Assembly: GCF_963921235.1 (NCBI RefSeq)
Contig: NC_086097.1
Location: forward strand, 39,310,001-39,374,000
Origin: Mobula hypostoma
Lineage: Eukaryota
DNA length: 64,000 nucleotides
Reading direction: 5' to 3'
Shown here piece by piece: positions 5,430 to 63,632 of the stretch. A model generated the notes under the pieces. That model was not told the origin of the DNA. It did no database searches and saw nothing but the letters and a program-made list of their open reading frames with translations. How positions within the stretch are numbered: the stretch's first letter is position 1; every line of letters begins with the position of its first letter. Both the position numbers and the translations under genes were made by a program.

Positions 5430-7487
5430 ACAGGAGTACAGGAAGGGGTAATACTTCACTTGCAGGAGGCAGGTGAGTGTGTGGAGAGGAAAAGGGAGTA
5501 GGCAGACGGACGGACAGTCCAAAGTACCTCAGTGGCCAGTCCCCTCAAGAACAATTATACTTGGGTACTGCTGGGGAGATCGTCCAGCAGGGAAAGCTGC
5601 AGCAACCAGGTCTCTGGCACTGAGTATGACTCAGTGGATCAGGAGCGAAGGGGGAAGAAGAGGGGAGTGGTAGTGATGGGTGATTCAGTGGGGGAGGCAT
5701 ACAGATCTCTTAGGAGAGCTAGAAAGGGGCATGAGAATGCCTCGTTGAGCAGGATTAAGGAAAACCTTAAAGCTTTCAAAACATACGTAAAGATCAGAAG
5801 GTTTACTGGAGTGAGGCTGGGCCCTGTCAGGAATAAAAGAGGAACGTGCCTGGAATCAGAGGAGGCAAGGGAGATCCTTAAGGAATTCTTTGCTTCAGTA
5901 TTCACCAATGAGAGGGACTCGAATGAACATGAGGACAGTGTAGAACAGGCCAATATGCTGAAACGTGTTAACAAAGAGGATGTGTTGGAACACTTGGGAA
6001 ACATTAGGATATACAAGTCTCCAGGGTCAGACAGGAAGTACCCCAGGTGACCACAGGAAGAGATTGCTGTGGCTTTGACAATGATCTCTGTGTTCTCATT
6101 GGCAACAGGAGTAGTGCTATTGGATTGGAAGGTGCCAGGAAAGGTTACAGGAACAATAGACCAGTGAGTCTTACATCAATGGTGGGCAAACTATTGGAGA
6201 GGATTCTTAAGAGACAGAATTTACCAGCATTTGGAGAAGCATAGCCTGATTAGGTATGGTTTTGGGAGGGACATGTTGTGTCCCATAAGTCAGATTGAAT
6301 GCTTTGAGGAAGTGACGGAACAAATAGTTGAAGGTGGAGCAGTGGATCTGATGTATATGGATTTTATTAAAGCATTTGATAAGGTTCCCAAAGGTAGACT
6401 CATTCAGGAAGTCAGTATGTCTGGGATTCAGGGAAACCTGGCTGCCTGGATTCAGAATTGTCTTTCCCACAGATGGCAGAGGGTGGTAGCAGATGGAGCA
6501 TATTTTTCCTGGAGATCGGTGACCAGTGGTGTTCCTCAGGGATCTGCTCTGGGCCCCCAGCTCTTTGTGATTTTTATAAATGACTTGATGAAGAAGTGGA
6601 AGAGTGGGTTACTAAGTTTGCATCCGACACGAAGGTTGATGGTGTTGTGGATGGTGCAGAAGGTTGTTGAAGGTTACAATGGGACACTGATAGGATGCAG
6701 AGCTGGTCTGTCAAGTGGTATTAGGAGTTTAATCTGGAAAAATATGGACTGATACACTTTGGAAGGTCGAACTTGAAGGCAGAGAACAGGGTTAATGGTA
6801 AGATTCTTAGCAGTGTGGAAGAACAGAAGGATCTTGTGGTCCACACCCACAGAAACCCCGAAGTTGCCACACATGTTGATAGGGTTGTTAAGAAGGCCTA
6901 TGGTGAGTTGGCCTCGTTAGTTGACGGATTGAGTTCAAGAGCTGCAAGTTAACGTTGCAGCTTTATAAACCCTGGTTAGACCACACTTGGAGTATTGTGT
7001 TCAGTTTTGGTTGCTTCATCATAGGAAGGAGGTGGAAGCTTTACAGAGAGCGCAGAGGAGATTTACCAGGTGCTTCCTGGATTAGAAGCATATCTTATGA
7101 GGAAAGCTTTAGTGATCTAGGGCTTTTTTCTTTGGAATGAAAGAGATAAAAGTGACTTGAAAGCATTGTATAAGATGATAAGCATAAACAGAGTGGACAG
7201 CCAGTTCCTTTTCCCCAGGTCAGGAATAGCTCATATGAGATTACATAATGGAAGAAATTATAGGGGAAAATCTGAGCTAGGTGTTTCATTTTACAGAGAG
7301 TGGTGGGTACGTGGAATGTGCCGTCAGGGGTGGTGCTGCTCTAGAGCCGTTTAAGAGACTCTTGGATCGGCACATGGACGAAAGAAAAATGAAGGAAAGC
7401 TTTAGACTGATCTTGGAGTAAGTCAACAGTCTGGTGCAATATCGTGGGCACAAGGGACTTTACTGTGCAGTACTGTTCTGTGTTCTA
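5430..7487 (+). mobile_element. CR1 LINE, internally deleted and degenerate
   Basis: Frameshifted ORF2 pieces [34 protein letters not shown] and [14 protein letters not shown]; typical CR1 3' end. Confidence 0.9.
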
Positions 7488-7528
7488 ACACTAACGGTGT
7501 CCATGAGGATATTGTTATAATTGCTCAC

Positions 7529-7650
7529 CAAAATCAATATGTTTTGCCACTCCATCAGGGACTTCATATCTAGAATTAGATCGTATCAGGGTCTGATGGC
7601 CATTTGTGTAACGATTAAACTTTGATCCCGTCAACAGATTTTCAGCAGTG
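7529..7650 (-). CDS. TPP1: TPP1 exon 5 (TAENLLTGSKFNRYTNGHQTLIRSNSRYEVPDGVAKHIDF)
   Basis: Not in the ORF track. TTTCAG| and |GTGAGC; 122 bp, phase 2 to 1; aligns to human QAELLLPGAEFHHY...APHVDF. Confidence 0.93.
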
Positions 7651-7814
7651 CTGAAATAGAGGATAAAAGACAATGCTGTCACAATTCATACAGTAACAAT
7701 CCATGAATGTGAGACCAATGTTTCCTACCACCTACTGTTAAATAAAGGGAAAACCAACATCATATCTTTAGGTTGTTGGCAGCAACTAGGCTCATTAAAC
7801 ACCCTGATTGCCCC

Positions 7815-11465: not shown

Positions 11466-11616
11466 CTGGAAGACATGAAACAATTCAAGAAATCTAAGGT
11501 CTGGACAATGGAGCAGTTTCGCACGCCAAAGCTTCCCAGCCACGTCCAAACAGTTTGCAGAGTCTCTTCCGAAGGTTGAACCATTCTGGATAACTGGTCC
11601 AGGGAGAGATATTTGC
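11466..11616 (-). CDS. TPP1: TPP1 exon 4 (GKYLSLDQLSRMVQPSEETLQTVWTWLGSFGVRNCSIVQTLDFLNCFMSS)
   Basis: Not in the ORF track. TTTTCAG| and |GTAACA; 151 bp; aligns to human GKYLTLENVADLVRPS...QDFLTCW. Confidence 0.94.
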
Positions 11617-12908
11617 CTGAAAACAAGGCAGTGAATTCGTCTAAAGAATTATTTTACAAAAAAAAACACCGAAAGGCATAGTAATTGTCACTAAATATTT
11701 TAAAAATCTACTCTGAGGAAATATAACCAGATGAGTTACATTTTTCTAAACAGGTTTGTTGGATTTGGCACAACTAAAGCCATAGAGCAAATGTTGGAAA
11801 TCTGAAATATAAAAAGAATCCTAGAAACAACATTGAAGAGAAGTTTGATAAGTAGGTGAACAGGAGTCGTATGGGGCTGTAGCCCAGGTGTGGGACAATG
11901 GAACTAGGCAGAACTAGAACTTTGCCATGGACTAGATGGGCTAAAGACCCTGTTTCTGAGCTGTAGTGCTCTATGACTATAAATATACACAAATTATAAA
12001 TTATACGCTGCTGTCAATTCCTAATTCACCCATTCAAAATGGGTTCATCTCCTCTGTCTAGAACGTCCCCGGCAGGCATCCTATTGTTTCTGAAATTATT
12101 CTATAAGTTTTGCCTCTGCTCCCTAGAGTGAAACTTATTCCACATGATGAATACAGAGTGATGAACTGTTTCCAAATAATTTGGTCCTGTACTCACTAGC
12201 CCTTCATTACAAGACAAATCTCTAACCCCGAGGATTGAATGGCAGTTTTTCTCCACTGCTATGAACACCGAATCCTTGGTGATCAGAGCCAGATACTGTA
12301 CCACATTACATAATATGTCTCACTAAAGCACGATGCCTAGAATTTATTGCACCATTTTGGTTATGTAATTCACTATCCCTCATTTCTGTTGATTGTTGTA
12401 TTTGTTCTACATAGAAAGCACAATCTCTACCAGGACTCCCAAGTCTTTGTTAACCATCTCAGCTGCATTCCTGAAGCATTTACATCAACTATTTCTTTTC
12501 TTTGTGAAGCCACTGAGTGGATTAATCTCCACCTTTTATTTTAATGCATATTGATAAGTTTTATCCAACCTAGGCAGCAATTTCTTAATTATTTTAGAAT
12601 CAGTTATTACAGCAGAGGTTCAGAGTTTGTGCTAACTTTTTTATTAGGGCAATAGTCAGTCCTTTAACCTACTTTTTCCCATGTCTCTGTAAATATTATC
12701 TTCAAAAAATTATTCAATGTCCTGTTGAAAACCATAAATGAATCTCCATCTGCCATACTTTCAGACAGATCTCTGCCTGAAAAGTTTTACCTCATGTAAC
12801 CACTGGATTTTATGCCAAGCACTTAAATTGATTAAATACCTGCTGAATAAAATCACCAAACCATTCAGCAATGCTAATGCAAAAATCAAGAAATGAACAA
12901 CAAATTAC

Positions 12909-13048
12909 CATACTGGGAAGAATCTGGGTTGGATAATTGCTCCAGCTTTTCCTCCAGCTTATTGACATTCTGCTGTTTCAATGCAAATGTGAGGAGGATT
13001 TGGTCCGTGGCTGAAACCCGCTCCACGTATTTCCACCCAGCAGGAAGA
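12909..13048 (-). CDS. TPP1: TPP1 exon 3 (LPAGWKYVERVSATDQILLTFALKQQNVNKLEEKLEQLSNPDSSQY)
   Basis: GTGCAG| and |GTAATT; 140 bp; pro-domain motifs LTFALKQQN and NPDSSQYG. Confidence 0.95.
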
Positions 13049-19481: not shown

Positions 19482-19941
19482 AAGAGGATGGGATTGAGAG
19501 GGAGAATAAATCAGCCATGATGGAATTGTGGAACAGACTCTTCTGTCTTATAGTCTAAAACTTGCACACTATAGCGATTCACACAAAGTGCTCAGCACCC
19601 ATGGGGAGGAATGAACAGTTGATATTTTGGGCCAAGACCCTTCATCAGAACTGGAAAGAAAAACTGCAGCAGCCAGATTAACACGGTAGGGGGAAGGGAA
19701 GGTGTACAAGCTGGCTGGTGAAAGGTGAGACCAGGTGTCGAGGAATTAAGTAAACTGGGAGGTGGAAGAGGTAATGGGATGAAGAAATAATCCAATAGGA
19801 GACAGTGAACCATAGAAGAAAGGGAAGGAGAAGGGGCACCAGAGGGAGCTGATGGACATGGGAGGAGAAGGGGTGAGAGTGGAACTAGAATGGGGAATGG
19901 AAAGGAGAGAAGGGAAGTGAGAACAACTGATGTTCTTGCCA

Positions 19942-20172
19942 CACACATCAAAGTTGCTGGTGAACGCAGCAGGCCAGGCAGCATCTGTAGGAAGAGGTGC
20001 AGTCGACGTTTCAGGCCGAAACCCTTCGTCAGGACTGCAGTCGACGTTTCAGGGTCTCGGCCTGAAAAGTCGACTGCACCTCTTCCTACAGATGCTGCCT
20101 GGCCTGCTGCGTTCACCAGCAACTTTGATGTGTGTTGCTTGAATTTCCAGCATCTGCAGAATTCCTGTTGTT
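19942..20172. mobile_element. Young Penelope-like fold-back insertion with a 14-bp TSD
   Basis: TGATGTTC(T/A)TGCCA at 19928-19941 and 20173-20186; near-perfect arms at about 19942-20025 and 20051-20134. Confidence 0.85.
20006..20047 (-). ncRNA. Hammerhead ribozyme motif (type-III topology possible)
   Basis: Minus strand reads ACGUC-GAC(UGCA)GUC-CUGACGA-AGG(GUUUCGG)CCU-GAAA-CGU. All conserved core nucleotides and three helices are present. Activity is untested. Confidence 0.75.
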
Positions 20173-21040
20173 TGATGTTCATGCCATCAGGTTGGAAGCT
20201 ATGAGCTACTACTTCTCCAACCTTAACGTGGCCTCATCGTGGCAGAGGCAGTGGCTTTTCTTTGCTGGAATAGCTTCCACACATCTTGAAAACCTGTCCA
20301 CTATTAACAGTACTCCTGAGTATCCTTGACACTTTGGTAAAGAGTTCACTTGTAAGAGTAAAAATGGGCCAGGCAGTGCAGGAGCATTTCATTGTGGTAG
20401 CTCTTATACTGCTCCAGCGTTCATTTTCTGGCATGTCATGCACCTTTCAAACGTTTATCCAGCTTGTGTGCTAGACTTTGGATTCCACACCATTGGGAGA
20501 ATCTGTCAATCATCTTTTCCACTCCATTGTGTCCCAGAGTGTGTATTTGTCGTGCCAGATGAGGAAGCAACATAGTTGGGACTGCCAGTCTGTGACTATT
20601 GCCATATCTCCATACTCACTGAATCTCCCACCTCTCTCCATTCAGAACCTCTTTTTCTGTGGACAACATTGAGCACGCATCTCTTGGATATCTAGTATGT
20701 TTGTTTGTGATACAGAGTTCAAATTCATTTCCGTAATTCCAGTTGTCCGATTCACTGCATATGCCTTCGGTATTTCTTTGACTTGTTCCTATGCTACCTT
20801 TCCATTGTAGTCAGGTTGGAGTGGCTTTTACACCAACTTCTGACCGCAGCTGTATGACATCCGTAAGTTCTTGTACTAGTTGGTCAATCTTGATTGGGGT
20901 TCCTAAGGTTATAAGAAATCATCTCTGTCTCCATAAGTTTCCAAAGTCATGAATAACTCCAAAAGCGTATTGAGAATCAGTGTAGATATTAGCCCATCTT
21001 CCTTCTGCCAACTCACAGCCTTCACTAAATCTTTCAGTTT

Positions 21041-23976: not shown

Positions 23977-26900
23977 CATAAGACGGTAAAACCTAGGAGC
24001 TGAATTAGGTCATTTGGCCCATCAAGCCTGCTCCATCATTTCATCATGGCTGATCCAATTTTCCTCTCAGACCCAGTCTCCTGCCTTCACCCTGTATCCC
24101 TTTGTGCCCTAATCAATCAAGAATCTTTTAATGTCTGCCTTAAATATACATAAAGACCTGGCTTCAACAGCTGCCTGTAGTGAAGAAATCCACAGATTCA
24201 CCACTCTCCAGCTAAAGACATTCCTCTCATCTCTGTTCTAAAAAGACACCCCTCCATTCTGAGGCTGTATCCTCTTAGACACTCACACCACAGGAAACAT
24301 CCTCTCCACATCCACTTTGTCAGGGCCTTTCATCATTTGATAGGTTTCAATGAGGTTAGCCCTCATTCTTCTGAATTCCAGTTAATACAGACCCAGAGCC
24401 ATCAAACGCTCTTCATATGACAAACCATTCAATGCTGGAATCATTTTCGTGAACCTCCATTGAACTGTCTCCAATTTCAGTGCATCCTTTCTAAGATAAG
24501 GGGCCCAAATCTGCTCATAATACTCCAAGTGAAGCCTCACCAGTGCTTTATAAAGTCTCAACATTACATCCTTGCTTTTATATTCTAGACCTTTTCACTC
24601 CATTTAGAAAATAGTTAACCCTTTCACTTCTTCTACCAAAGTGCATGACCACTTACCGACACTGTATTCCATCTGCCATTTCTTTGCCCATTCTCCAATC
24701 TAAGTCCTTCTGTAGCCTCTCTACTTCCTCAAAACTACCTGCCCCTCCACCTATCTTCATATTGTCTGCAAACTTTGCAATAATTCTATCATCCAAATCA
24801 TTAATATATAACATAAAAAAAAATTGGTCCCAACACAGACCTCTGTGGAACACCACAGAAAAGGCTCCCTTTATTCCCACTCTTTGCCCCCTGCCAATCA
24901 GCCACTGCTTTATCCATGCTAGAATCTTTCCTGTAATACCATGGTTTTGTAGTTTGTTAAGCAGCCCCATGTGTGGCACCTTGTCAAAGGCCTTCTGAAA
25001 ATCCAAGTACACAAGATTAACACACACTTCATGACCCGACACCTGGAACTTCCAGCATACTACCAGCATTTTCCAGTAATGCAAAATACTTATTCAGTTC
25101 ATCTGCCATTTCGTCATCCCCCATTACTACCTCTCCAGCACTGTTTTCCAATGGTCCAATATCCACTCTTGAATCTCTTTTACACTTTATGTATCTGAAG
25201 AAATTTTCAGTATTTTCTTTATTATTACTGGCTAGCTTATTCCATCTTTACCTTCTTAATGACATTTTAGTTGCCTTCTGTTGGTATTTGAAAGCTTCCT
25301 ACTAATTTTTGCTCTATTATATGCCCTCTCTCTTTGGCTTTTTATGATGGCTTTGACTTCCCTTGTTCGCCATAGTTGTGTCATCTTTCCTTTAGATCAC
25401 GTCTTCCTCTTTGGGATGTATATATATCTTGTGCCTTTGCTTCCAAAAATTCCAGCCACTGCTGCTCTGCCGTCATCCCTGCCAGTGTTCTTTTCCAATC
25501 ATTTCTGACCAATTCCTCTCTCATGCCTCTGCAATTCCCTTTCCTCTACTGTAATACTGATACATCTGACTTTAGCTTCTCCTTCTCAAATTTCAGGGTG
25601 AATTTCATCATATCATGATCACTCCCCCCCCCCCACCCCCACCACCCCCGGAAGGGTTCTTCTACCTTACAGTCTCTAAGCAATTCTGGAATTCTGGTTA
25701 CTGCACAACACCCAATCCAGAATAGCTGATGCTGTGGTAGGCTCAATCACGAGCTGCTCTACAAAGTCATCTTGCAGGCAATCTAGAAATTCCCCCTCCT
25801 GTAATCTAGCACCAACCTGATATTCCCAATCTACCTGCAAATTGAAATCCTCCATGATAATTGTAATATTGCCCTTTTGGCATGTGATTTCTATCTCCCA
25901 TTGTAATTTGTAGGCCACATCCTTACTACTGTTGGGGATCTGTATACAACTCCCATCAGGGTATTTTTACCCTTGCAGTTCCTTATCTCTATCCACAGTG
26001 ATTCAACACATTCTGACCCTATGTCACCTCTTTCTAATGATTTGATTTCATTTTTTACCAACAGAGCAACGCCACCCCCTCCACCTTCCTGCCTACCCTT
26101 TTGATACAATGTGCATCCTTGGACATTAAACTCCCAGCTATAATCTTCCAACTGTGATTCAGTAATTATACCTGCCAATCTGCAACTGTGCTGCAAGTTC
26201 TTCTACCTTATTCCGTGTACTGCACGCATTCAAATATAACACCTTCAGACCTGTACTCACCCTTTTCAAACTTCTCCTCCTGTTACATTGCAACTCATCC
26301 TGTTGACTGCAATTTTGCCTGATCAACAGCCTCTCCTCACTACACACTGCCTCTGATTGTAAACCAACTACCCTCATCTTCAGCACAGTTATCCACCTTT
26401 CCTACGATACTCCTTACATTGAAATATATGCAGCTCAGGTCACTAGTTCCACCATGCTCAACCTTAACTTTGGCTGAGGTCTTACCAACATCTGCCTCCA
26501 CAACCTCTCCATTAACTGTTCTGGCAATCTGGTTCCCATTCCCCTGCAACTCTAGTTTAAACCCCACCATGCAGCATTAACCAACCTTCCTGCTAGGATA
26601 TTAGTCCCCTCCAGTTCAGGTGCAAACCATCCGTTCTGTACAGGTTCCACCTTCCCTGGAAGAGAGCCCAAAGATCCAAAGATCTTATGCCCTCCCTCCT
26701 ACACCAACTCCTTAGCCACATATTAAACTGTATAATCTTCCTAGTTCAGGCCTCACTAGCACGTGGCATGGATAGCAATCCTGAGATCACAATCTTAGAG
26801 GACTTGCCATCTAACTTAGCACCTAACTGCCTATGCAGAACCTCGTCACTCATCCTACCCAGGTCATTGGTACCTTCATGGACCACGACTTCTGGCTGTT

Positions 26901-27670: not shown

Positions 27671-28230
27671 CAATCCCAAATGCCGATTGATTGCTGGTCA
27701 AAGTTCTTTTTCGTTGCCGTGACCCACTGCTGCCTTTTGGTCCTCGGACAGCGGACCTGATTGAAATCCCCTCCTCTCCAAACTGCATGTCTGGATTGGC
27801 CACTGGTCAAAGCACTTTTTCCAATGAGAAAACATTTATTCAAGTAATACAAATAAAGAAGCTTCCAGAGCTTTCCAGAATTATACTTTGCATCTCTGCT
27901 AGAGGCATAGTAAACTGTTATATGCATATAAGAGCTACTTAAAATACATGAGATAATTGTTAAACTGCAAAGGAAATAGCAACTAAACAGCTTAAACTAA
28001 GAATTAAACAGTCAGATCCAACAGTGCTGTATTGCTAAGCAAGAAAATAAATACATAATAATGCAGAATTCCAACAGGCTTATGCAAAGCTTTTCTGTAT
28101 CAACTTATAAAGCACTTCCAAACATTAGGACGCAAGCAACAGGAATTCTGCAGATGCTGGAAATTCAAGCAACACACATCAAAGTTGCTGGTGAATGCAG
28201 CAGGCCAGGCAGCATCTGCAGGAAGAGGTG

Positions 28231-28268
28231 CAGTCGACGTTTCAGGCCGAGACCCTTCGTCAGGACTA
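28231..28268 (-). ncRNA. Minimal type-I hammerhead ribozyme of the Penelope-like element
   Basis: UAGUC-CUGACGA-AGG(GUCUCGG)CCU-GAAA-CG-UC-GACUG; palindromic ACGU helix III as in dimer-cleaving PLE hammerheads. Confidence 0.8.
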
Positions 28269-29230
28269 ACTGAAGGAAGAGTGAGTAAGATTTGAAAGTG
28301 GGAGGGGGAGATCCAAAATGATAGGAGAAGACAGGAGGGGGAGGGATAGAGCCGAAAGCTGGACAGGTGATAGGCAAAAGGGGATACGAGAGGATCATGG
28401 GACAGGAGGTCCGGGGAGAAGGACAAGGAGGGCTGGGTGGGGGGGGGACCCAGAGGATGGGCAAGAGGTATATTCAGAGGGACAGAGGGAGAAAAAGGAG
28501 AGTGAGAGAAAGAATGTGTGCATAAAAATGAGTAACAGATGGGGTACGAGGGGGAGGTGGGGCCTTAGCGGAAGTTAGAGAAGTCGATGTTCATGCCATC
28601 AGGTTGGAGGCTACCCAGACGGAATATAAGGTGTTGTTCCTCCAACCTGAGTGTGGCTTCATCTTTACAGTAGAGGAGGCTGTGGATAGACATGTCAGAA
28701 TGGGAATGGGATGTGGAATTAAAATGTGTGGCCACTGGGAGATCCTGCTTTCTCTGGCAGGATCTCCCAGTGACCACACATTTTAATTCCACATCCCATT
28801 CCCATTCTGACATGTCTATCCACGGCCTCCTCTACTGTAAAGATGAAACCACACTCAGGTTGGAGGAACAACACCTTATATTCCATCTGGGTAGCCTCCA
28901 ACCTGACGGCATGAACATCGACTTCTCTAACTTCCGCTAAGGCCCCACCTCCCCCTCGTACCCCATCTGTTACTTATTTTTATGCACATTCTTTCTCTCA
29001 CTCTCCTTTTTCTCCCTCTGTCCCTCTGAATATACCTCTTGCCCATCCTCTGGGTTCCCCCCCCCCGTCTTTCTTCCCAGACCTCCTGTCCCATAATCCT
29101 CTCGTATCCCCTTTTGCCTATCACCTGTCCAGCTCTTGGCTCTATCCCTCCTCCTCCTGTCTTCTCCTATCATTTTGGATCTCCCCCTCCCCCTCCAACT
29201 TTCAAATCCCTTACTCACTCTTCCTTCAGT

Positions 29231-48651: not shown

Positions 48652-50291
<1,640 letters not shown>

Positions 50292-54659: not shown

Positions 54660-57600
54660 TTAGGGCACATGGATAACAGAGCCAGACACTGCTACAATAT
54701 AGAGATTGCCCAAAAACAAACCTTCATGAAGATCTGCTGGTTAAATTACACAACCTCGGCTTGCTGAGGGGATTGGACCTACAGTCCTCGGAGTCGTCTG
54801 ATGCCGGTGGCTGGAGGAGGAGACGTCATAAGCAGTGTGTGAGGAAGTGGAAGCAAGGCAAGTGGGCAGGAGTCCATGCCAGGCAAAAAGCAAACTCTAG
54901 CCGGCCAGCTCTCCCGTCCATTCTGCTCTCCAATGTCCGCTCTCTGGACAATAAATTGGACTACATCTGACTCCAATGAAATACTCGGTGGGAGTACAGA
55001 GTCTGCTGTGTGTATGTTTTCATGGAAACGTGGCTCACTGACGGAATCCCAGACACCGCCATTCATTCAGCTGAACGGGCTCGTCTTGTTTCGAGCGGAC
55101 AGAGATGCAGCTCTTTCTGGTAAGACTCGTGGTGGTGGCTTGTGTGTTTACATCAATACGGAATGGTGCAAGAAATCTGTGCTGGTTTCCAGATACTGCT
55201 CATCGCTAGTGGAGTTTGTGACTGTTAGATGCAGACCATTTTATCTGCCACGGGAATTCACCACTGCTCTTATAGTCGGTGTCTACATTCCCCCCAGTGC
55301 TAATGCTAAGGAGGCGCTCTGTGAACTGTATGGGGCTATTAACGAACTGCAGAACATACACCCTGATGGACTGTTTATTGTCGCCAGAGATTTTAACCAC
55401 GCGAACCTTAAATCAGTGCTCCCAAGATTCCATCAGAATGGGGACTTTGCAACAAGAGGGGAGAACGCGTTGGACCTTGTTTACACAAATATTCCTGACA
55501 CGTACCAGGCAGATCCCTGCCCCCCACCTCGGCTACTCAGACCACATCTCTGTTATGCTAATCCCAGCATACAGACCGCTCGTCAGATGCTCCAGATCAG
55601 TTCAGAAGCAGGTGAAAACCTGGCCAGCAGGAGCCATCTCTGCTCTTCAAGACTGCTTTGAGCACTCTGACTGGCTCATGTTCAGGGAGGCTGCAACCAA
55701 TGGCGACTCTACCAACTTAGAGAAGTACACGGCATCAGTGACTAGTTACATCAGCAAGTACATCGATGACGTCACTGTGGCCAGGACCATCACTACATGC
55801 GCTAACCAGAAGCCATGGATGACCGTGGAGGTGCGTGCGCTGCTGAGGACCCATGACTCCACCTTTAGAGCAGGTGACAAGGCAGCCCTAACAACAGTGA
55901 GGGCCAAACTGTCCCGGCCCATCAGAGAGGCAAAGTGTGCACACGCCCAGTGAATCCACAGCCACTTCCAGGACAGCAGCGACATGCTGTGCATGTGGAA
56001 GGGCATTCAGGACATCGCCAACTACAAGACAACACCACCTGCCTGTGCTGGTGATGCCTCCCTCCCAGATGCGTTGAATAACTTCTACGCTCGTTTTGAG
56101 GCGGAAAATGACATGGCAGTAAGGAAGACCATCCCTCCTCCAAACGACCAGGTGCTGTGTCTTACCGTGACCAATGTGAGGAGAACCCTGTGCAGGGTCA
56201 ACCCACGGAAGGCTGCTGCACCAGACAATATTCCTGGCAGAGTGCTTAGAAGATGTACAGACCAACTAACTGCGATTCTCATTGTCATCTTCAACATCTC
56301 CCTGAGCAGCGCCATCGTTCCTACGTGCTTCAAGGCTGCCACCATTGTCCCCGTGCTGAAGAAGTCTTCAGTGTCCTGCTTCAACGACTACCGTCCCGTT
56401 GCACTCACATCCATCATCATGAAGAGTTTCGAGAGGCTCATCATGAGGTACATCAAGACCCTGCTGCCCACCTCACTGGAACCCCTGAAGTTTGCATACC
56501 GTCCCGGCCGTTCTACGGACGATGCCATTGCCATCACCCTCCACCTGGCCCTAACCCACCTGGACAAAAAAGACATGTATATTCGAATGCTGTTCATAGA
56601 CTTGAGTTCAGCATTCAACACAATCATTCCTCAGAAACTGATTGGAAAGCTGAGCCTATTGGGCCTGAACACCTCGCTCTGCAACTGGATCCTAGACTTC
56701 CTGACTGGGAGACCTCAGTCAGTCCAGATCGGAAGCAGCATCTCCAACACCATCACACTGAGCATGGGGCCCCCCAGGGCTGTGTGCTCAGTTCACTGCT
56801 GTTCACTCTGCTGACCCACGACTGTGCTGCAACACACAGCTCCAACCACATCATCAAGTTCGCCGATGACACGATCGTGGTGGGTCTCATCAGCAAGAAC
56901 GATGAGTCAGCATACAGAGAGGAGGTGCAGCGGCTAATGGACTGGTGCAGAGCCAACAACCTGTCTCTGAATGTGAACAAAACTTCAGGAGGACACTGAA
57001 CGACCACTCTCCACTGAACATCGACGACTCCTCTGTAGAGATCATTAAGAGCACCAAATTTCTTGGTGTTCACCTGGTGGAGAATCTCACCTGGTCCCTC
57101 AACACCAGCTCCATACCAAAGAAAGCCAAGCAGCGTCTACAGAGGTTGTATTGAGAGCATCCTGAGCAGCTGCATCACTGGCTGGTTCGGGGATTGCACC
57201 GTCTCGGATCGCAAGACCCTGCAACGGATAGTGAGGTCAGCTGAGAAGATTATCGGGGTCTCTCTTCCCGCCATTACAGACATTTACACCACACGCTGCA
57301 TCTGTAAAGCAAACAGCATTATGAAGGACCCCACGCACCCCTCTTACAAACTCTTCTCCCTCCTGCCATCTGGCAAAAGGCACCGAAGCAATTGGGCTCT
57401 CACGACCAGACTATGTAACAGTTTCTTCCCCCAAGTCATCAGACTCCTCAATACCCAGAGCCTGGACTGACACCAACCTACTGCCTCTACTGTGCATACT
57501 GTCTTGTTTATTATTTATTGTAATGCCTGCACTGTTTTGTGCACTTTATACAGTCCTGGGTAGGTCTGTAGTCTAGTGTAGTTTTGTGTTGTTTTACATA

Positions 57601-60805: not shown

Positions 60806-61470
60806 TAGAGAATTCGCAAATCTTAATTGAAAAAGAAGAAAGAAATTATTTAACTGAGCAATTATGGCATTGGTACCTTGAAATCAAACATTATTATTGA
60901 ATTAGGAGGAATGAACTGATAACTCTGGTGCTATGTAGCTTGACAAGGGAGTAGAAACAGGAACATCAGAGGTCTTAATCAGGTGTTTTCAAAGTATATT
61001 GTAGCACTGCTTTGTTCTGGGCCACTTCAATATTGTCCAGAAGATACTATTTCTGAATTATTGGGCTAGATCTATATTTCTTTTCTAAAAGTTAACAAAC
61101 TAGATTATTTTCCTGTCTAAACCTGCCTCTCATTGATCAGGCAGAACTGTCTGCCTCTTGAATTGTAGTATGGCCCTCAATACTAATAATTCAGGCAGCA
61201 CCAGCCCACATTGGCATTACTGGCGTACAGCTACTAGAAACACATCCATGCCTAGTAATTCCCACACAGGTAACAGTCCTTGCTAAAGACATATCCAACA
61301 TCCAAGCTCAGTGGACAAAAGGATTTACCAAACACATTCCCAGCATCTGCAATTGTTTTGACTTGTATTAAATAGCAAAGGATACAAAGATAAATCACCA
61401 ATAAATTGGTTTGGAAAACACATGCAATAAAGGCTTTGAGCATAAAAGTAAGAGGAAATACAATCCTTAC

Positions 61471-62593
61471 TTGTGTAGACAGTGGAGTTCTTTCTTAGTC
61501 CAGTGTTCTGCTCCAGGATCATCAACAGCATGTAGGGACATGCTTAGTTTTTGTTGTACTTTCTGACCAGGCATGGAACATGATTCTGAGCTTGTATCTG
61601 CTGCTGCTCTATTTTTAGGTGCTGCCTTTTTTAAGGATATTGCCGAATGTTTTAGTTTTCTTTTTGCACTAACCTTGGCATGCTTTGTTTCAGTCAGTAA
61701 AACATCTGTAGTGGATGATAGAATCCTATTGAACTGATTTTTCTGTTTTCTTTTTGAAGATTGTTGATTGCACTTTGACACAGTGCTTCCACTATTATCA
61801 TCACTTAGTTCTGCTGCATCTATTTGAACGAAAGACTCTTCAAACTGTGACTCTGTGACTTGCTTATTTTGTTCTAAGTTTTGCTTATTGACAGACTGTT
61901 TGAGATTCATTTTTCTCGATTTTCTTTTAATATTAATCTTGGTATCTTTATTGGACCGAGAAGTCTCATCTTCTATTGGACTCAATGAAACAGTTTTGTC
62001 GATTGATTTTGAAGAACGATTTATCTGTGTGCGCCTTTCAGAAGTGTACCTTTCATTTATATCCTTCATTTTAGATGAATCGATCACTTTTGCAGGAGAT
62101 GGATTTCTTTTCTCATTCTGGCTTTTCTGGATGTTCTGTGATGACATGCTTGATTTTACAGTTCTATTTCTTAATTTGTAAGTATCTTGACATTTTGCTT
62201 TTGTGGATCTTAGCTCAGATTTGAATTCAAGGATGCCGTTCTCGCTTGTACCCTGCATTTCAGATGAATTAATTGTATTTACAGTGACCAATTTATTGCC
62301 TTTCTGGGCATTTTTCTGAACAGAGTGTACAAGTTCACCTAATTCTACTGTTTTGTTCATTAACGAATAAGGATTGTGAACTGGGCTCAAAACAACAGTT
62401 GGGTTTAAGTAATTATGCTTTTTGTTCTTTTTATTTTCAGTATTCAAAGTAATTCCATCTGTTCTTAAAGTGGTTTGACTTGGCAAGTGCTGCTGTGGCT
62501 GTTTCCTCAGGCTATATTTCACTGGCTGATTTTTCGATTTTTCTTTTGCACCCTTTGTCCCTTTGGCATTTCTTTCCATCTTTAAAACTTGAT
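61471..62593 (-). CDS. MIS18BP1: MIS18BP1 large K/S/N-rich exon ending in the start of SANT (EHWTKKELHCLH)
   Basis: Open 1123-bp exon inside the 420-aa ORF; CTCATAG| and |GTAAGG; splices in frame to the SANT exon. The acceptor position is less certain than the donor. Confidence 0.88.
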
Positions 62594-63632
62594 CTATGAG
62601 AAAATACATTACAAAATATACCTGTAAACCTGGTATCAAAATAAAGTGAACATCTACTGTAAAGGATGTTAGTCTTTGATATTCCATGAGAAATCTATTG
62701 TAATAATAAATGCAATGATATTTTTGCACATTTTCCCCCTAATAACGCACTAGTTTGTTGGTTTTGCTGAGGAAATTTGCAACATCTGGAATTGAGATAT
62801 CCCTCCATGGTTTTAACAAAATAAACCAATGTAGTGTACCATTCCAAAAATATGCAACTGAAATGCAGATTACTTTATGTATTTATTGAAGGGCAATACA
62901 AACAATATTTGTCTTTTCATTAGGTTAATAACATTTCAGGTAGGGCAAGAATGTTTAACAGCTCATTGAAACTTGACTTACTATTCTATCATTGTCACAA
63001 TGAACACAGAGGTCACTGAGGCAGAAGATTTCAAAATAACAATTTTATGCAGACCTTGCTTATACCACAGCAGGTAACAGATAATCAGCTATATACTGTC
63101 ATGGACTCTAAATTACAATTTCTGAATAAAACATGTACAATGTTTTAAACATCTAAAGCAAAGCATCATCACTTTGAAGGAAAATCAATTTGATTACTTT
63201 ACTGGTAAATGCTCTGATCTGACCAATTGTCTGATATTTGCTGTCCCCAAGTATCTATGGAGCCCTGGTTCATATCAGAAAGATCTTCAGATAGCTCGAA
63301 GAGCATCTATAGTATCTGTTGCCGTACTCTGGTGACGCAAAAGACTGCACTCAAAATAATTCTTAATGCTGAGGAAAAAACTATTATAAATAATACTTCA
63401 CAAAAAATTACTATAATGCAATTAACAAGAAATAATTTAAAAAAGTCAAACCAATTGTGTATTTAAATGGGATTACCTCAACATCATATATCAAAAGCAT
63501 GAAAAATTAGTGGAATTTCCACTAAGTTCTTAAACAGATACCCTGATGTGGTCTTCCATCTGAGTTAGCTCCAAGCTGCTCATTCACACACTGTGCTTTT
63601 CCAATCTGTTCTGAGTAGAGATGGAGGAGGTA

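Follow-up and report, generated by a model that had tools for sequence, protein, structure and literature searches.

Does the inverted repeat at positions 19942–20173/4 of the window (the whole 64,000-nt stretch of Mobula hypostoma DNA analyzed here) hold a hammerhead ribozyme (HHR) that can cleave itself within one molecule? On its minus strand a self-complementary ACGU occurs twice, and with the additional copy a type-III hammerhead can be drawn in a single RNA within a TPP1-like gene. In the reading that we prefer, with a probability of about 0.85, the locus is an old insertion of an abundant endonuclease-positive Penelope-like element (PLE), the type-III hammerhead is a by-product of that insertion, and significant self-cleavage is unlikely.

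Read directly, the minus strand contains a CUGACGA box at 20032–20026 and GAAA at 20012–20009. One ACGU is found at 20009–20006 and the other at 20047–20044, while GAC (20042–20040) and GUC (20035–20033) enclose a UGCA loop. From 20050 to 19998 the order is GAAA-CGUC, the 10-nt palindrome GACUGCAGUC, CUGACGA, a short hairpin, again GAAA-CGUC, and GACUGCA. The conserved core is all present (C3-U4-G5-A6-N7-G8-A9, G12-A13-A14, A15.1-U16.1, and H17), with GAA at 20012–20010, A20009 pairing with U20044, and C20043 as C17. The repeat finder gives a perfect direct repeat of 18 nt (19998–20015 and 20036–20053, 100% identical) and a smaller inverted pair with a 7-nt loop (20036–20053 and 20061–20078). 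Helix I (3 bp), helix II (3–4 bp), and helix III (4 bp) can all be drawn in one molecule. The pattern CTGANGA-N(8-30)-GAAACGTC occurs twice in the window for 0.01 occurrences expected, so that the motif is not due to chance. The initial annotation gave the same minus-strand letters, with every position correct, and its principal points (a second ACGU supplied by a duplication, a drawable type-III hammerhead, and a cleavage site between 20043 and 20042) formally stand.

Two hammerhead units contribute to the drawing. A complete PLE minimal-HHR unit with a short-form 3′ tail, ending ...GATGTGTGT, occupies 19942..20037 on the minus strand and aligns with standard copies and with the second copy in the window. 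In this intact unit, the 5′ strand of helix I is at 20037–20033, an extra A at 20025, helix II at 20024–20013, C17 at 20005, and the 3′ strand of helix I at 20004–19998. It has the minimal-HHR trait of lacking helix III and loop 3: the 3′ strand of helix I begins immediately after GAAACGUC, and the ACGU is self-complementary. Its assignment to the minimal type-I hammerheads of PLEs, in which a palindromic ACGU replaces helix III, was already proposed in the initial annotation and agrees with both the sequence and the literature. The other unit is reduced to the 18-nt repeat at 20036..20053 (minus strand, CCUGAAACGUCGACUGCA), which is equal to the joint between complete tandem units elsewhere. 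That repeat provides the second ACGU (20047–20044), the second C17 (20043), and the GAC (20042–20040) of the hairpin helix I. What had been called a local duplication is the remnant of a second, tandem HHR unit.

Helix II can be drawn in two registers. Register B pairs GGGU with GCCU around a UUCG loop and leaves an A unpaired after A9 (four pairs, two of them wobble); A20025 is then the extra unpaired nucleotide of the minimal HHRs. The register chosen in the initial annotation, AGG/CCU with a 7-nt loop, can also be drawn, but its predicted energy is −3.9 kcal/mol versus −4.2 kcal/mol for register B, which on these energies is the more likely helix II. Among the 120 motif matches tabulated for helix II (a few of which are unrelated sequences), two variants dominate (57 and 31) and the rest are mixed. 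Variants with U11.1 changed to C, about a dozen of the 120, fit register B; the variation as a whole hints at register B, short of a test. The 10.1–11.1 pair is here G-U, not the conserved G-C of minimal HHRs, and the same holds for the two commonest family variants, with C in a minority. On the minus strand, sequence, repeats, and folding delimit a 25-nt apical loop of the long hairpin (20026..20050) that consists of GAAA, CGUC, the GAC-UGCA-GUC hairpin, and CUGACGA. This loop had been described as a type-II permutation, which is literally correct for its order; helix III is missing from this form, since a pair of A15.1 with U16.1 would enclose an impossible 2-nt loop.

The family to which the unit belongs is very large. 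With up to two mismatches, the 28-nt HHR core has 83,393 matches (41,673 + 41,720) in the 3.48-Gb genome, with none for the reversed control, and exact copies of the core of the intact unit occur elsewhere. The standard form, with CAGTTAGTC upstream, has 65,839 matches at ≤1 mismatch. Thirty instances of the exact core comprise 17 with the standard upstream sequence and one of another subfamily; an inverted copy is joined at the 5′ edge of the core, or within a few bases of it, in nine of the 30, and the 5′ end of the insert lies at the core edge in three. In one of the 17 standard copies (L029), the inverted copy is joined about 20 nt further upstream. Truncation points of standard copies range from 9 to >1359 nt upstream. 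The insertion at 19942–20173/4 is an old, decayed copy, one among roughly 10^5 family members.

The coding capacity points to the type of element. A 750-aa ORF matches RVT_1 (E = 3.2e-5, 24.2 bits, below the cut-off of 29.6), and there is a C-terminal GIY-YIG match (E = 6e-4, 20.5 bits, below the cut-off of 22.6); the order of the two domains, reverse transcriptase then GIY-YIG, is correct, and a YIDD motif can be seen. The 750-aa ORF is that of L071, where its stop codon is followed after 290 nt by the HHR core; the core is in the 3′ UTR, about 103 nt before the end of the element, and L004 has the same layout. No reverse transcriptase domain was found in L061, upstream of L004, because that copy is 5′-truncated. 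With its 428-aa ORF as query, copies with up to 97% identity and open frames of up to 1054 aa were found among the 98 scored of 276,235 candidates. The arrangement is that of an endonuclease-positive PLE that carries a putative minimal hammerhead of the dimer type close to its 3′ end. What PLE hammerheads do is described as unclear in the available text of PMC8557442.

A second, standard copy is present in the window at 28130..28450 (minus strand), identified by pattern match and alignment, with its core at 28236–28263, the usual upstream sequence (...cttccttcagttagtc), and the long 3′ end. A polypyrimidine tract with a terminal CAG (cttccttcag) precedes C3 by 6 nt in the standard element (L002–L030; 28270–28285 on the minus strand in the window) and resembles a 3′ splice acceptor. 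For Penelope of Drosophila virilis, the 3′ end of an intron is reported to map to the 5′ end of helix I (available text of PMC4209133).

How did a tandem remnant come to lie next to a fold-back? The block 19942–20173/4 is one 233-base retrotransposon insertion between target-site duplications that match at 11 of 12 positions, GATGTTCTTGCC on the left (19930..19941, directly adjoining the insert) and GATGTTCATGCC on the right (20174..20185, where the first G is alternatively the last base of the element). On the plus strand, the inverted repeats reveal an inverted 5′-truncated copy (20051..20173) that spans the part from helix II to the 3′ end of the long form and is identical to the minus copy at 83 of 85 positions. 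The repeat finder gives arms of 93 nt (19933–20025 and 20051–20143, 95% complementary, with 25 nt between them), of which the outer 8 nt are chance-matching flank; the true homologous arms are 85 nt long, in agreement with the approximately 84 bp stated in the initial annotation. Since one target-site duplication surrounds the whole structure, fold-back and duplication were made in a single integration event. The earlier suggestion of a local rearrangement within the gene does not hold, the duplicated target site flanking both together.

The arm on the minus strand ends at the short 3′ end of the family and the arm on the plus strand at the long one, about 38 nt further; both ends are also present in other insertions. 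According to the available text of PMC11167929, the enzyme of an anole PLE cuts and extends both target strands, and reverse transcription begins at two sites. An inverted 5′-truncated copy beside the insertion is given as a hallmark of PLEs, and an optional tail of 30–40 bp is also described, by Craig et al. (2021, PMC8557442), again as far as the available text goes. The two 3′ ends seen here correspond to the optional tail and to the two start sites of the anole element. The tail was also considered as a source of the 38-nt duplication and rejected: tails are placed at 3′ ends in PMC11167929 (available text), and the duplication is on the 5′ side.

Genome-wide, the parts of the junction recur. 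The 29-nt joint GAAACGUC-GACUGCA-GUC-CUGACGAAGGG is found 12 times exactly and 26 times at ≤1 mismatch, and the 38-nt tandem joint, with four loop letters free, 33 times. In the sample examined (30 tandem joints in 29 loci), most joints connect two complete hammerhead units at a distance of 38 nt. A pattern search finds a near-complete upstream unit in 25 of the 30 (with three units in L036) and an inverted arm within 260 nt upstream in 18, to which L052 and L058 are added by eye. In L044 and L052, the inverted arm cuts the upstream unit to little beyond GAAACG... onward, as it does here, and in L035, L039, L057, L058, and L060 the CUGANGA box of the upstream unit is partly missing. Flanks and target-site duplications vary among the 30 joints, and the loci are therefore independent insertions. 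For the turn of the fold-back within the loop of helix II, there are 100 matches at ≤2 mismatches, 45 of them exact. A genome search for the same junction, proposed in the initial annotation, thus has a divided outcome. The separate parts recur (33 tandem joints, 100 turns), and the combined 35-nt form has a single match at ≤3 mismatches, the present locus, so that only the combination is unique and the recurrence of the separate junction types is not directly informative on the exact form.

Other joints of the family fall at equally defined places. At 768 loci, two cores meet head to head in a palindrome that turns exactly at the core edge, with a spacer of 2 nt. The spacer is nearly always GA/TC (for example, at G000:C1:16832341-16832368). 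In tandem insertions without a fold-back, the 5′ end of the insert is within about 2 nt of C3 in nine of nine. Ends at the core edge suggest a discrete 5′ end of the RNA, or a stop of the reverse transcriptase, at that place. Among the neighbors within 3.3 kb of the first 100 standard matches, there are 12 head-to-head pairs versus one tail-to-tail pair. A tandem joint with a 31-nt period, in which GAAACGUC is followed directly by CUGACGA with a shared GUC, was predicted from GUC microhomology and has 21 matches, of which 10 are on small contigs (C148–C178) and represent one common variant. One case (L072, G000:C148:36350-36850) is in another subfamily and has its own fold-back and target-site duplication. 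As a type-III candidate the 31-nt joint was rejected, helix I being unable to form. Inverted head-to-head copies and 38-nt tandem repeats are often produced at the 5′ ends of insertions of this family, and the type-III arrangement is one outcome among many template-switch products at such ends.

In the preferred reading, a single integration accounts for the locus as follows. During integration, the reverse transcriptase made a head-to-head inverted copy at the 5′ end of the insertion and, in the same event, repeated the hammerhead unit in a short tandem with a period of 38 nt. The inverted copy joins inside helix II of the upstream tandem unit and leaves only its GAAACGUC-GACUGCA end, and this leftover end gives the intact downstream core a substrate strand, hence a type-III hammerhead that can be drawn. 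In this reading the drawn ribozyme is a by-product of template switching rather than the result of selection. By one route, cDNAs primed from each of the cut target strands would run toward the hammerhead, one of them switching template once GUC was copied and so gaining a second unit, and their 3′ ends would pair through GG/CC microhomology in helix II before fill-in. By the alternative route, the complement of the helix II hairpin would let a single cDNA snap back and copy itself. For the order of template switches at this locus, we infer that the data fit the joining of two cDNAs and the snap-back alike; hairpin snap-back cannot have produced the 768 palindromes with their 2-nt spacer, so that two-cDNA joining is favored for that class. 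A transcript, if made, would fold into the 85-bp hairpin or, in a short form, pair GUCGAC with GUCGAC or form the 7-bp helix I.

The ribozyme candidate itself matters little, and the junction record of the family is the more useful. The exact positions of breaking and rejoining within the hammerhead (768 at the core edge, 100 in the helix II loop, 33 + 21 in tandem) form a natural record of template switching and could help to test for a defined 5′ end or structure of the hammerhead RNA during retrotransposition. A further and much less probable reading is that the sharp hot spots record how the fold or the 5′ end of the RNA steers the PLE reverse transcriptase.

Three exons of a Pro-kuma_activ domain (the propeptide domain of the sedolisin/TPP1 type) are found on the minus strand of the window: 12898–13038 (E = 3.4e-7, profile positions 2–48), 11480–11617 (E = 0.043, positions 45–90), and 7524–7670 (E = 0.12, positions 89–138). 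They cover consecutive profile positions and identify the minus strand as the sense strand of a TPP1-like gene, as stated in the initial annotation. About 6.9 kb separate the insert from the exon at 12898–13038, which is downstream of it; no TPP1-like exons were located upstream of 13038, so that the placement in intron 2 by the initial annotation stays a proposal. That the insert and the second same-strand copy at 28 kb are tolerated fits a low cleavage activity, short of proof.

Folding predictions leave the type-III form a minute share of the ensemble. The minimum free energy (MFE) is −15.6 kcal/mol for the 56-nt construct of the initial annotation (20055–20000), −62.5 kcal/mol for 91 nt with the inner arms (20080–19990), and −187.3 kcal/mol for the whole 233-nt insert (20174–19942); the type-III fold is at −4.2 kcal/mol in all three, and helices I and III together have ensemble fractions of 2e-8, 4e-24, and 4e-24, respectively. 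In the MFE structure of the 56-nt construct, the two GUCGAC words are paired and C17 is buried. In a 55-nt construct (20050–19996), the 7-bp type-I helix I and the register-B helix II dominate, with pair probabilities of 0.87–0.96. The predicted energies thus confirm the competition from the long hairpin that the initial annotation foresaw and do not support its possibly monomeric fold. Given the predicted 85-bp hairpin or the competing short pairings, significant self-cleavage at the locus is unlikely. Nearest-neighbor energies omit the tertiary core and co-transcriptional folding (in which the 3′ arm is the last to emerge, after the 5′ arm, the loop, and the core), so that they lower the odds of cleavage without excluding it. 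Further weaknesses of the drawn ribozyme, besides the G-U pair at 10.1–11.1, are a helix I of 3 bp without loop–loop contacts and an open-ended helix III of 4 bp. Tabler and colleagues reportedly found in 1994 that a helix I of 3 bp can suffice in engineered hammerheads.

Covariance models, also proposed as a check, give no hammerhead match at the locus, yet they are blind to the standard and tandem units of the family. With Rfam at the gathering score, there are no matches in the whole 64-kb window. With E up to 10, there are eight matches in 19700–20400, none of them to a hammerhead (type I, II, III, HH9, and HH10 models). In a control on L036, L038, and L004, with standard and tandem units, none of 19 matches is to a hammerhead either, and the negative result therefore carries little weight.

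Among the alternatives, the one that survives best, though we hold it unlikely, is that the intact unit (20037–19998) is an ordinary type-I minimal hammerhead in which cleavage after C20005 requires a second ACGU as pairing partner, whether that of another transcript or the upstream one, whose own unit lacks a core. The intact unit matches the family core letter for letter, the predicted 7-bp helix I and register-B helix II dominate the 55-nt construct, and the published model has such motifs acting as dimers (PMC4209133, available text). In the same text, a single schistosome minimal motif does not cleave, and dimers, trimers, and a motif with an artificial helix III cleave weakly, mostly at non-physiological Mg2+. 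In the anole PLE, RNA-seq reads neither begin nor end at the HHR site, and insertion in vitro is independent of cleavage (PMC11167929, available text). At the present locus, moreover, the 85-bp hairpin would sequester helix II and the 3′ strand of helix I.

Rather less probable is that the functional part, if any, is the long hairpin, an intronic, near-perfect inverted repeat of 85 bp diced into anti-PLE small RNAs. The predicted MFE of the 233-nt hairpin (−187 kcal/mol) and the hundreds of similar fold-backs in the genome would suit such a role. Hairpin-type miRNA models are also the only Rfam matches at the locus, but their scores (21–42 bits) are far under the gathering thresholds (65–99 bits) and reflect a generic hairpin, for which they were rejected.

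A monomeric, possibly switchable type-III hammerhead, self-cleaving the TPP1-like pre-mRNA between 20043 and 20042, is very improbable. In its favor are the conserved core with A15.1-U16.1 and C17, three helices that can be drawn, and their position on the sense strand, together with some cleavage in vitro by a minimal HHR with an artificial helix III (PMC4209133, available text). Such engineered forms have low activity at mostly non-physiological Mg2+ in the same source, and the predicted fold, with its short helices I and III, is at −4.2 kcal/mol and faces competitors at −15.6 to −187 kcal/mol. The absence of a hammerhead match in Rfam even at E up to 10 adds a little, the control being weak, and recurring insertion by-products explain the arrangement. 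We consider it just as improbable that the 38-nt joint turns a dimer-only hammerhead into a cis-acting one, cleaving the TPP1-like pre-mRNA whenever the nascent RNA folds ahead of transcription of the 3′ hairpin arm; if it did, the 33 loci with the tandem joint would be natural "monomerised" PLE hammerheads.

That the fold-back is an assembly artefact is hardly credible: palindromes are prone to assembly errors and no short-read contig spans the central junction, but the structure lies between target-site duplications, run X1 has a 137-nt contig that crosses from the left flank into the insert without mismatch (19827–19963, in support of the left boundary only), and hundreds of loci with like junctions have their own flanks and target-site duplications. 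The contigs of runs X1, X5, X9, and X16 that reach the locus are all short and break at the repeat, and most of their depth comes from other family copies. Of the 24 sequencing runs listed, none is recorded as RNA. Directly left of the insert, 19804–19855 is repetitive, with a summed X1 contig depth of about 78,000–89,000 versus a few hundred in neighboring bins.

With the minimal HHRs of metazoan PLEs (Cervera and De la Pena 2014, PMC4209133, available text) the unit shares a type-I core without helix III and with a palindromic 15.2–16.2 (ACGU), an extra unpaired nucleotide between A9 and 10.1, the location in the 3′ region or pLTR of an element with reverse transcriptase and GIY-YIG, a massive copy number, and dual motifs close together on opposite strands. 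It differs in the G-U pair at 10.1–11.1, which is G-C in theirs. It differs also in the remnant of a second unit 38 nt upstream, which permits an intramolecular helix III, a 3-bp hairpin helix I, and formally a type III; an intramolecular helix III through a tandem remnant is not among the arrangements of minimal HHRs in the available text of PMC4209133. Nothing specific was found in the literature on hammerhead ribozymes of shark Penelope elements.

Avocado sunblotch viroid and newt satellite 2 are examples of double hammerheads. In the double hammerheads of tandem or dimeric transcripts (Forster et al. 1988, cited in PMC4209133, available text), as in the present drawing, two units share an extended helix III of palindromic 15.x/16.x and one core cleaves the site of the other. 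Unlike those, which are complete units a full monomer (hundreds of nucleotides) apart, the units here are 38 nt apart, the upstream core is lost, and the structure is drawn only.

Twin priming was reportedly described for L1 by Ostertag and Kazazian in 2001. The present locus resembles such products, and the complex PLE insertions of Craig et al. (2021, PMC8557442, available text), in its inverted 5′-truncated copy directly at the 5′ end, its target-site duplications, the optional tail of 30–40 bp, and the variable 5′ truncation. It is unlike both in that the two arms span the same short 3′ region, so that the insert is almost wholly hairpin, and in that the junctions lie at precise sites (the core edge, the helix II loop, and helix I position +7).

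Elsewhere in the window, the longest open frame, 61470–62738 (minus strand, 423 aa), has no Pfam match with E up to 0.01. Fragments of RVT_1 ORFs from other retroelements are found at 54843–57467 (+), 6168–6749 (+), and 24656–25093 (−); the RVT_1 matches of other retroelements have E values of 7.8e-13, 7.3e-12, and 1.5e-11, with one sub-threshold match at 2.9e-6. At 48860–49591 (−) there is a remnant of a transposase of the Tc1/mariner type (DDE_3, E = 2.5e-14; HTH_Tnp_Tc3_2, E = 1.3e-8).
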